DNA of 64,000 nucleotides from a virus: the IMG/VR virus record IMGVR_UViG_3300025892_000010; one strand, written 5' to 3'. Numbering within the stretch: position 1 is the first letter of the stretch; each line of letters begins with the position of its first letter. The translations under genes and the position numbers were made by a program. The notes beneath the pieces are model-generated. The model saw only the letters and a list, made by a program, of their open reading frames with translations. It had not been told where the DNA came from and ran no database searches. Below are positions 61,937 to 63,216 of the stretch, one piece after another.

Positions 61937-61965
61937 TTGACAATCAATTAAAACACCTGCATAAT
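61937..61965 (+). promoter_or_regulatory. Sigma70-type promoter for the tRNA
   Basis: TTGACA-N17-CATAAT ending 7 nt before the tRNA 5' end. Confidence 0.8.
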
Positions 61966-61972
61966 ACACAAA

Positions 61973-62050
61973 CTGCTCGTAGCTCAGCTGGATTAGAGCA
62001 ACAGCCTTCTAAGCTGTGGGTCGTAGGTTCGAGTCCTACCGAGCAGGCCA
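61973..62050 (+). tRNA. tRNA-Arg(UCU)
   Basis: Acceptor CTGCTCG/CGAGCAG, D arm GCTC/GAGC, anticodon arm ACAGC-CTTCTAA-GCTGT, T arm GTAGG-TTCGAGT-CCTAC, encoded CCA. Confidence 0.97.
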
Positions 62051-62053
62051 ACC

Positions 62054-62209
62054 TTATATACCTTGCATACGTGGGTCAGTAGAAAAAAGATTTTTCTTCG
62101 CCTTTGGTCTAGCAATACTATCTTTACTTCGTTTTCTTAATTGAGCTTTAGTAGAGATTTCTTTACTTTTCTCTTTTCTTAAAGCTCGTAGGTCTTTTAA
62201 CAAGTCCAT
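62054..62209 (-). CDS. 51-aa basic protein downstream of the glutamine riboswitch
   Basis: AAGGAG RBS then ATG at 62209; MDLLKDLRALRKEKSKEISTKAQLRKRSKDSIARPKAKKNLFSTDPRMQGI (16 K/R). Confidence 0.8.
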   Translation of the reverse strand: MDLLKDLRALRKEKSKEISTKAQLRKRSKDSIARPKAKKNLFSTDPRMQGI

Positions 62210-62230
62210 ACATACTCCTTTAATTAAAGA

Positions 62231-62282
62231 GCGTTTCTTCAACCGTAGGTGGTTTACTTCCGTCCGTTTCAGGATAAACGAT
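62231..62282 (-). ncRNA. Glutamine riboswitch (glnA RNA motif, class I)
   Basis: AU-CGUUU-A-UCC-UGAAAC-GGA-CGGAAGUA-AACC-ACCUAC-GGUU-GAAG-AAACG-C: P1, P2 and P3 all pair; CGGAAGUA...GAAG E-loop core and 3' C match the glnA aptamer architecture. Confidence 0.85.
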
Positions 62283-62288
62283 TATAAT

Positions 62289-62296
62289 TATTTATA
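62289..62296 (-). promoter_or_regulatory. T4-type late promoter driving the riboswitch transcript
   Basis: TATAAATA overlapping the IscA-like gene stop; predicted +1 at 62283. Confidence 0.75.
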
Positions 62297-62600
62297 CGCT
62301 AAATGATGTACCACAACCACACGAACTTGTAGCTTTTGGATTATTAAATTTAAACATAGATTCAAAATCATCATAGTTATAATCTAATTCTAAACCCATA
62401 AGATATAATTCGTAGTCTCTACTAACTAGTAGTACATCATCTACTATAGCGTCATTTCTTTGTTCTTCATCTGCAAAAGACCATTCGTAATTAAACCCAG
62501 CACAACCGCCGCCTTTGACATCAAGACGTACAAACTTTTTATTATGTTTGTTTCTTAATTCGTTTAATCTTTTATATGCGTTGTCTGATAATTTAATCAT
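62292..62600 (-). CDS. A-type Fe-S carrier protein (IscA/HesB/ErpA family)
   Basis: VKGGGCAG..Y, LDY, FNNP.A.SSCGCG.SF. Confidence 0.93.
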   Translation of the reverse strand: MIKLSDNAYKRLNELRNKHNKKFVRLDVKGGGCAGFNYEWSFADEEQRNDAIVDDVLLVSRDYELYLMGLELDYNYDDFESMFKFNNPKATSSCGCGTSFSV

Positions 62601-62607
62601 ATGTTAC

Positions 62608-63201
62608 CTACGTGTAAAATGGTCTTAATAAAGTTGCAACTAAATGAACTCTATCTATTTCACTACCATTAAAGAAGTTATGATATTTTGTATTATCGGT
62701 AATATAAGCACTACCATTTGCCGGCATATGAAAAGATTCGTCTTCAATAACCATTTTACATCCTTCATTTGTAATTATAGGTACGTGAATACGTGGCTCT
62801 GGATCCCTATGCCAAGATAAACAACTTCTTGGTGGTTTCATTAATAGTCTAACTCTACCGATTTTACCGAAATTACTCTTTAGTATATTATATACTTCTT
62901 CAAAGTAAGTATCCTTAAATTCAGGACAAATTTCAGTATAAGCGGCTTCGTCTACCGGCTCTAGTCGTTTCTGTTCAAAATTATCTGTATCAGGTTTAGT
63001 CCAATATAGACCTCTTATATTTCCACCTGTTATAGAATCTTCATCACCTGGTTTTCTGTTAACACAAATAGCATTGAAATCAATCTTGCTTTTATCATCC
63101 GTGTTATACGATAAGTGTTTGCGTATATCAAAGTAAGCTTTGCCTAACTTATCAATATCTATGCCTAAAGCATATTCGTAATAGTGTATAAAGTTTGTCA
63201 T
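62608..63201 (-). CDS. Aspartyl/asparaginyl beta-hydroxylase-family 2OG-Fe(II) oxygenase
   Basis: GRVRLL.KPPRSCLSWHRD...RIHVPIITN, HNFFNG...DRVHLV; start probably MTNF at 63201, 5 nt after CCTAAATA. Confidence 0.85.
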   Translation of the reverse strand: MTNFIHYYEYALGIDIDKLGKAYFDIRKHLSYNTDDKSKIDFNAICVNRKPGDEDSITGGNIRGLYWTKPDTDNFEQKRLEPVDEAAYTEICPEFKDTYFEEVYNILKSNFGKIGRVRLLMKPPRSCLSWHRDPEPRIHVPIITNEGCKMVIEDESFHMPANGSAYITDNTKYHNFFNGSEIDRVHLVATLLRPFYT

Positions 63202-63216
63202 ACACATATTTAGGCA

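Follow-up and report, generated by a model that had tools for sequence, protein, structure and literature searches.

A likely self-contained late cassette joining a type-1 glutamine riboswitch to a conserved 51-residue protein gene in a Mosig-like pelagimyophage

The virus record IMGVR_UViG_3300025892_000010 from IMG/VR was analysed over a stretch of 64,000 nucleotides (nt; hereafter the window), in which the minus strand between positions 62054 and 62296 carries a T4-type late-promoter box, a type-1 glutamine riboswitch aptamer and an open reading frame (ORF) for a small basic protein of 51 amino acids (aa). A first-pass annotation, made from the letters alone, had described this motif layout with three paired stems and an intact junction core, and on direct reading of the strand all motif elements proved identical to that description. 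The elements, all on the minus strand, are the following.

62289..62296, minus strand: T4-type late-promoter box TATAAATA (sequence)
62283, minus strand: predicted transcription start, 6 nt past the box, 1 nt ahead of where the Rfam match begins
62228..62282, minus strand: type-1 glutamine riboswitch aptamer (glnA RNA, RF01739; cmscan)
62280-62276 / 62236-62232, minus strand: stem P1 (CGUUU/AAACG; sequence)
62274-62272 / 62265-62263, minus strand: stem P2 (UCC/GGA; sequence)
62262-62255, minus strand: junction CGGAAGUA (sequence, cmscan)
62254-62251 / 62244-62241, minus strand: stem P3 (AACC/GGUU; sequence)
62240-62237, minus strand: GAAG (sequence, cmscan)
62231, minus strand: conserved C directly 3' of P1, at which the segment complementary to the Shine-Dalgarno (SD) sequence also begins (sequence)
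62215..62231, minus strand: putative expression platform, in which CUCUUU pairs with AAGGAG inside the SD stretch AAAGGAG across a 5-nt loop (sequence, folding, covariation)
62054..62209, minus strand: gene for the 51-aa basic protein, stop codon included (translation, homologues)

The match to RF01739 runs from 62282 to 62228 and covers the model in full (positions 1-53 of 53); it scores 47.4 bits, where the gathering score is 35, and its E-value is 2.9e-7 for the whole 64-kb window searched against all 4227 Rfam families (1.4e-9 locally), far beyond chance. This covariance-model search was the check proposed for the earlier assignment to the class-I glutamine riboswitches, and the assignment held, whilst the Downstream-peptide model RF01704 gave no match in 62100-62400 even at E <= 10. 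The junction/E-loop elements CGGAAGUA and GAAG, together with the C that follows P1, are invariant across the aligned relatives, and the stems vary around them: the fifth pair of P1 occurs as UA, CG or GC, three P2 pairs are doubly changed, and P3 is found as AACC/GGTT, GGCA/TGCC, AGCA/TGCT or CCA/TGG (P3 pairs were read by eye, the MAFFT alignment having misplaced this stem). The P1/P2/P3 three-stem junction is thus backed by compensatory changes, and the element is identified as a genuine, full-length type-1 glutamine riboswitch. We take C62231 to be the equivalent of the 'linchpin' C60 of the solved aptamer. The role of C60 is that given by Ren et al. (2015), as relayed in PMC11477058 and PMC6212724.

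Translation of the downstream ORF gives a protein with 10 lysines and 6 arginines (31% K+R), in agreement with the 16 basic residues counted at first pass. A mechanically listed 62-aa ORF with a TTG start is an artefact that extends into the aptamer, and relatives set the start at the second ATG, giving 51 aa. In IMG/VR we found 290 ORF loci confirmed by tblastn, which form 120 protein clusters, nearly all of exactly 51 aa. The ratio of nonsynonymous to synonymous polymorphism (pN/pS) is approximately 0.15 for codons 22-51 versus 0.59 for codons 2-21, and invariant residues of the family are encoded by two to four different codons. Residues 22-51 form a near-invariant core (AQLRKRS.DSIARPKAKKN..S.DPR.QGI), retained in distant members as SRPR.EKNILS.DPRLQ.I. 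By these signs the 51-aa ORF is judged to be a real gene under purifying selection.

The region is nearest to that of the Pelagibacter phage Mosig EXVC030M (78% identity over half of a 1.7-kb query), a T4-like SAR11 myophage classified in the Kyanoviridae. The window phage is accordingly best placed as a Mosig-like pelagimyophage and not a cyanophage, as the early guess of a non-cyanobacterial phage had it. Mosig carries the orthologous aptamer (50 bits against RF01739) with a CATAAATA box at equal spacing, followed by the 51-aa ORF, which is annotated there only as hypothetical. The nearest IMG/VR record likewise has both aptamer and ORF, and of the 74 loci with enough sequence on the upstream side, 59 have the aptamer core right before the ORF, so that the co-conservation proposed as a check at first pass is found together with covarying stems and a selected ORF. 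The flanks upstream of the box differ among loci (the end of a HesB-like gene, terminators or other genes), and elsewhere the cassette sits between Hsp20 and peroxiredoxin genes near gp45/gp44, or inside a capsid-tail block; since the flanks and neighbourhoods differ whilst the trio stays together, box, aptamer and ORF move jointly as a mobile late-gene cassette. Only four isolates have the ORF, all of them Pelagibacter phages: the myophage Mosig and the podophages HTVC103P, HTVC104P and HTVC023P. Across 185,579 species genomes there were only four matches to the ORF, all on short contigs of metagenome-assembled genomes (MAGs) or single-amplified genomes that resemble binned phage DNA. The gene therefore appears to be absent from cellular genomes and to be found essentially only in SAR11-type phages.

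Upstream, the TATAAATA box overlaps the TAA stop codon (62294-62292) of a HesB/IscA-like gene, and the five nucleotides ATTAT separate it from the AAU-CGUUU with which the transcript is predicted to begin. The start is placed at 62283 on the basis of the known spacing of T4 late promoters and of the retention of this spacing in relatives. Within the window, TATAAATA boxes occur 14 times on the minus strand, which is the coding strand, and once on the plus strand; none of the 14 falls within an ORF called with confidence, and 13 precede an ORF start by 5-97 nt. Of 133 unique phage aptamer flanks, 86 have an [ACT]TAAATA box whose end is 2-16 nt (mode 6-8) upstream of P1, 65% observed versus approximately 0.9% expected from background, an enrichment of about 70-fold at fixed spacing. 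We consider that the box behaves as a real promoter signal in the window, and the first-pass view of a phage-type promoter as part of the module finds support both in this enrichment and in the conservation of the box where the flanks differ. No sigma70-type promoter was predicted at the aptamer cassette. A sigma70 promoter built on the TATAAT of the spacer was considered and rejected: it has no -35 element, the hexamer is not kept in relatives, whilst the ATAAATA box is, and a start from it would truncate P1. A gp33 query gave no match in the 64-kb window; the annotation of the related phage Melnitz includes a late-transcription coactivator, and a T4-like late transcription set was reported by Buchholz et al. 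(2022; PMC9004378).

Between aptamer and gene, CUCUUU (62231-62226) faces the SD stretch AAAGGAG (62221-62215), with the ATG at 62209-62207, and the SD-masking hairpin alone is calculated at -4.0 kcal/mol. Covariation was assessed in 109 unique phage leaders by pairing the eight bases from the post-P1 C with the last 22 bases through the ATG. The mean longest helix was 4.50 bp versus 3.74 +/- 0.09 bp in random pairings, and 0 of 2000 permutations attained the observed value; since leader classes share descent, the permutation count should not be taken as a probability. Compensation takes at least seven forms of pairing: CUCUUU:AAAGGAG in the window phage, and CACCU:GGGUG, CACUU:GAGUG, CACUUU:AAGUG, CAUCU:AGAUG, CAAUCU:AGAUUG and CGCCU:AGGUG. 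The absence of a U-tract terminator 3' of the aptamer argues that control is translational. The platform thus appears to be of the gifB type and kept by compensation, in line with translational ON control as published; covariation in this way upholds the first-pass suggestion of an anti-SD segment that starts from the post-P1 C, which also agrees with the model of Ren and Klahn. On this model the phage late RNA polymerase would most likely initiate at about 62283, so that the transcript opens with the aptamer. At low glutamine, the post-P1 C and the next five bases (CUCUUU) would pair with the SD region and block ribosome binding, whilst at high glutamine this C would instead pair at long range with a G of the junction (62261 or 62260) in the ligand-bound aptamer, P1 would be stabilised, the short masking helix would melt and the 51-aa protein would be translated. 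We therefore regard it as likely that late promoter, type-1 glutamine riboswitch and 51-aa gene together form a self-contained late cassette of a Mosig-like pelagimyophage that acts as a translational ON switch.

Glutamine riboswitches of this phage group have been described before. Buchholz et al. (2022; PMC9004378) reported them in Melnitz, Mosig, ten pelagimyophage metagenome-assembled viral genomes and five GOV2 contigs; they placed the Melnitz copy in the ssrA 3' domain, where it was said to control the transfer-messenger RNA (tmRNA), and mentioned no downstream small ORFs. The Melnitz aptamer (52.8 bits against RF01739) does overlap the 3' edge of the annotated tmRNA, and it is then followed by an SD sequence, an ATG and a 32-aa ORF (MTLYQQWCY...; riboswitch to ORF at L086:1501-1667, equal to MZ577097.1 46398-46564), which is unannotated in the Melnitz record, an opposite-strand coding sequence being annotated over it. 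Relatives of this 32-aa ORF stand behind other phage aptamers, so that the reading of tmRNA control is probably mistaken and a small ORF probably the general target. When IMG/VR was scanned with nothing but the aptamer core, at least 120 stretches matched (L089-L208), and at least eight unrelated small-ORF families lie behind these phage glutamine riboswitches. They include DUF4278-like YRG peptides, Melnitz-type W..C peptides of about 30 aa, a 64-aa family with ..NG.GTSGY.., a family with MTYRPFSWKRF and a 49-aa family ending in NPFYP. Among the matches listed, tandem aptamers occur in L106, L111, L134 and L163.

The same aptamer class is also found on bacterial chromosomes. In the order of a MAG that bears the cassette, chromosomal RF01739 aptamers were found in 20 of 46 genomes; they are often tandem and precede amtB, glnA, a gene for a 126-aa secreted protein or tiny ORFs (loci L214, L215-L218, L219, L220 and L221, in genomes G007, G010, G022, G024, G030, G033, G036 and G037); for the amtB and glnA copies OFF logic is expected, unlike for gifB. 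This order comprises streamlined marine Alphaproteobacteria of low guanine-plus-cytosine (GC) content, for which the source names conflict (Pelagibacterales, Rickettsiales, Alphaproteobacteria bacterium) and whose nearest named glutamine synthetase (GS) relatives are Rhodospirillales. By these chromosomal copies the aptamer class is native to heterotrophs of the infected kind, and the unassigned metagenomic settings of glnA RNA in Weinberg et al. (2010; PMC2864571) agree with copies in heterotrophs. On one bacterial chromosome two glutamine riboswitches in tandem precede an ORF of 35 aa (MDRMSLYYFIKERQ...; L221:1359-1466, minus strand). Its resemblance to phage MDRF..WC.. peptides suggests that units of riboswitch and micro-protein are exchanged between host and phage; no GS gene is adjacent at this locus.

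The genes that surround the window cassette are the following.

62292-62600, minus strand: HesB/IscA-like iron-sulphur (Fe-S) assembly protein (PF01521), upstream neighbour
62608-63207, minus strand: Asp/Arg beta-hydroxylase-like protein (PF05118), upstream neighbour
61937-62050, plus strand: tRNA-Arg(TCT), downstream neighbour, converging on the 3' end of the 51-aa ORF

In Mosig a 41-aa hypothetical ORF takes the place of the Fe-S gene, and there are tRNA-Leu, tRNA-Arg and tRNA-Pro at the site where the window phage has tRNA-Arg only. The promoter of tRNA-Arg(TCT) is near-consensus sigma70-type (TTGACA, 17 nt, CATAAT).

Several observations weigh against the switch as we propose it. Nearest-neighbour folding does not return the aptamer as the minimum-free-energy fold (z = 0.41), and the SD hairpin persists even when the aptamer is enforced and the C left unpaired; two-dimensional (2D) energies cannot show a ligand effect, since the hairpin stays under all constraints, and the melting step would depend on tertiary effects for which the Synechococcus structure is the sole source. 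Some phage aptamer classes have no obvious C-anchored anti-SD segment, no terminator was found between the upstream gene and the aptamer, so that read-through transcripts may carry the aptamer too, and podophage homologues of the ORF work without any riboswitch. The position of the same aptamer class before amtB and glnA in marine Alphaproteobacteria, with the OFF logic expected there, means that the ON direction is not to be presumed. An OFF switch, or a target other than the ORF such as an RNA gene, would accommodate these bacterial copies, the undecided direction in 2D modelling and the assignment of the Melnitz riboswitch to ssrA control (PMC9004378), but the window has no tmRNA, the one RNA gene close to the cassette being the convergent tRNA-Arg with its own promoter, the Melnitz aptamer itself leads through SD and ATG into a conserved ORF, and the C-anchored anti-SD helix is the ON arrangement of gifB. 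We hold this alternative to be very unlikely.

In podophages the gene is set in a different context. No RF01739 match was found across the whole genomes of HTVC103P and HTVC023P (HTVC104P was not in the scan), from which it follows that glutamine gating is an add-on and not intrinsic to the gene. The ORF of podophage-type contigs belongs, by translational coupling, to late operons in which lysis genes are frequent. In L061 the order is an Amidase_2 endolysin, a two-transmembrane (TM) holin-like protein (phrog_2524), the ORF, a TM and coiled-coil protein (phrog_20984) and then two small proteins, of 69 aa and of 77 aa, the latter with a signal sequence and Cys; the core of this order recurs in HTVC103P, HTVC023P has the ORF followed by the TM and coiled-coil protein and an M15 endolysin, and in L065, L066 and L068 phrog_2524 is followed by the ORF. 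The L074-type contigs have basic DUF6321-like proteins as neighbours instead. These loci also outline a candidate pelagiphage lysis cassette (L061:314-2366, L083:1829-3445, L084:2489-3619) made up of an endolysin (Amidase_2 or M15), a two-TM protein of the phrog_2524/HTVC103P gp50 type, an i-spanin-like TM and coiled-coil protein and a small protein with signal sequence and Cys, of which the non-enzyme members are all annotated as hypothetical. By tblastn the podophage neighbours gave no match in the window, and there are no phrog_2524 or phrog_20984 homologues in Mosig, Melnitz or genome G001, so that these two families cannot be partners on which the 51-aa protein depends throughout.

It is possible, though on present evidence rather unlikely, that the 51-aa protein sets when lysis occurs, for instance by acting in the cytoplasm as a partner of holin or spanin, in which case the myophage would tie this moment to host glutamine. 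The ORF lies within lysis neighbourhoods of the riboswitch-less podophage-type contigs (L061, HTVC103P, HTVC023P, L065, L066 and L068), the cassette uses a late promoter, and a link between glutamine and lysis was independently speculated upon by Buchholz et al. (PMC9004378). Set against this, the window ORF is not near any lysis gene, Mosig, Melnitz and G001 are without the two candidate partners, the phrog_2524 gene of HTVC023P is 9 kb away from the ORF, the L074-type neighbours are the basic proteins named above, and the holin and spanin assignments come from hydropathy only.

AlphaFold2, run with the family alignment, predicted one helix (residues 3-33) followed by an extended basic C-terminal tail (mean predicted local distance difference test, pLDDT, of 83), and the near-invariant core covers the end of the helix and the whole tail. 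Searches with the 51-aa protein gave nothing above noise in Pfam at E <= 0.01 or at E <= 10, no PHROG match, a negative result in an ESM Atlas feature search and coiled-coil noise only among PDB chain sequences. An exhaustive profile search of 1.84 billion representatives returned only 61 short peptides and no longer or annotated relative; a 380-aa match was set aside as a repeat protein in which a chance likeness is limited to a 12-residue motif. DUF4278 (PF14105) was matched at E <= 10 by none of 33 family members, whilst the phage YRG peptides behind other aptamers, which served as positive control, scored up to 30.2 bits.

By sequence, then, the 51-aa protein is not IF17-like, and the GS-inhibitor-like effector put forward at first pass gains no support here, no relation to DUF4278 or IF17 being detectable. 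The protein could still be a functional analogue of the cyanobacterial IF7/IF17, switched on by high glutamine and then blocking host GS. The riboswitch class and platform logic are as in gifB, and marine Alphaproteobacteria akin to the cassette-bearing MAG wire the aptamer to glnA and amtB, so that glutamine riboswitches serve nitrogen control there. IF7 is part helical and part extended, and the 51-aa protein resembles it in being small, basic, and likewise part helical, part extended. In addition to the DUF4278 and profile results, however, the copies in podophages have no glutamine gating and are surrounded by genes for lysis or structure, and the ORF is absent from cellular genomes; we think such an analogue improbable.

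A nitrogen-costly accessory protein that binds nucleic acid or ribosomes and is possibly packaged in the virion, its synthesis being restricted by the riboswitch to spare nitrogen, is also to be considered. Its 31% K+R, single helix and basic tail would suit such a role, as would late expression from the promoter box; on several contigs the ORF is flanked by other very basic small proteins (DUF6321 and proteins with a KFKVYPSAYAN motif), and relatives of the window phage group encode ribosomal protein S21. The protein has, however, no similarity to known nucleic-acid-binding or ribosomal families, and a near-invariant 30-residue core with a pN/pS of 0.15 suggests a defined docking partner over generic charge. 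We consider this role unlikely.

What probability these three roles leave falls to a host target: the retention of the 30 residues in unrelated SAR11-type myo- and podophages suggests that, late in infection, the most probable partner to which the tail docks is some conserved component of the host. More tentatively, as a proposal with a minor share of our confidence, the protein might be a late effector whose invariant tail docks a component of the SAR11-type host or of the lysis machinery, the riboswitch tying lysis timing or a shut-off of nitrogen assimilation to the glutamine pool. If this were true, a metabolite riboswitch would govern a decision in the life cycle of phages that infect the most abundant bacteria of the ocean. 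Surface waters, in which nitrogen is often in short supply, are dominated by SAR11-type bacteria and their phages, and a gene of such a phage that was translated only at high host glutamine would directly read out the nutrient state of the host during infection.

Compared with known systems, the window element is not a regulator of a new type; earlier publications cover the riboswitch class, how it works and its occurrence among these phages. In cyanobacteria glutamine turns gifB/IF17 on through this aptamer, whose usual partners are DUF4278 proteins (Klahn et al., 2018; PMC6212724). The latter paper, which draws on Ren et al. (2015), proposed that glutamine binding leads to a G23-C60 pair and to the melting of a short P1-attached helix over the ribosome-binding site (RBS). 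The Synechocystis gifB leader and the window share the Rfam family, the three-stem junction, the junction/E-loop and a post-P1 C with which an RBS-masking helix begins, as well as a small basic protein and glutamine-ON translational control, the masking and the control being predicted in the window. Unlike gifB, the window switch is in a phage of heterotrophic streamlined bacteria, has a T4-type late promoter and essentially no 5' leader, and would control a protein that is not DUF4278/IF17-like. The Glutamine-II (RF01704)/DUF4278 micro-proteins of marine picocyanobacteria likewise have the aptamer directly before a very short conserved ORF, but RF01704 is without a match around the window cassette and the peptide family is unrelated. 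Units of this Glutamine-II type are present in many copies in marine metagenomes. The alphaproteobacterial copies are of the same aptamer class, in low-GC marine heterotrophs of the infected kind, and some precede tiny ORFs (L221); they differ in being often tandem and before amtB, glnA or a secreted protein, and the 51-aa gene is absent there. With the riboswitches of Buchholz et al. (PMC9004378) the window copy shares both phage group and riboswitch class, the Mosig copy being its orthologue, whilst the target is not tmRNA but a conserved 51-aa gene here and an unannotated 32-aa gene in Melnitz. The target protein family and the cassette logic appear to be unpublished. The analysis corrects the published reading of phage riboswitch targets from tmRNA to small ORFs, identifies as target a family of proteins restricted to two morphotypes of SAR11-type phages, and shows that promoter box, aptamer and small ORF form a general mobile cassette in marine phages that serves at least eight unrelated micro-protein families.

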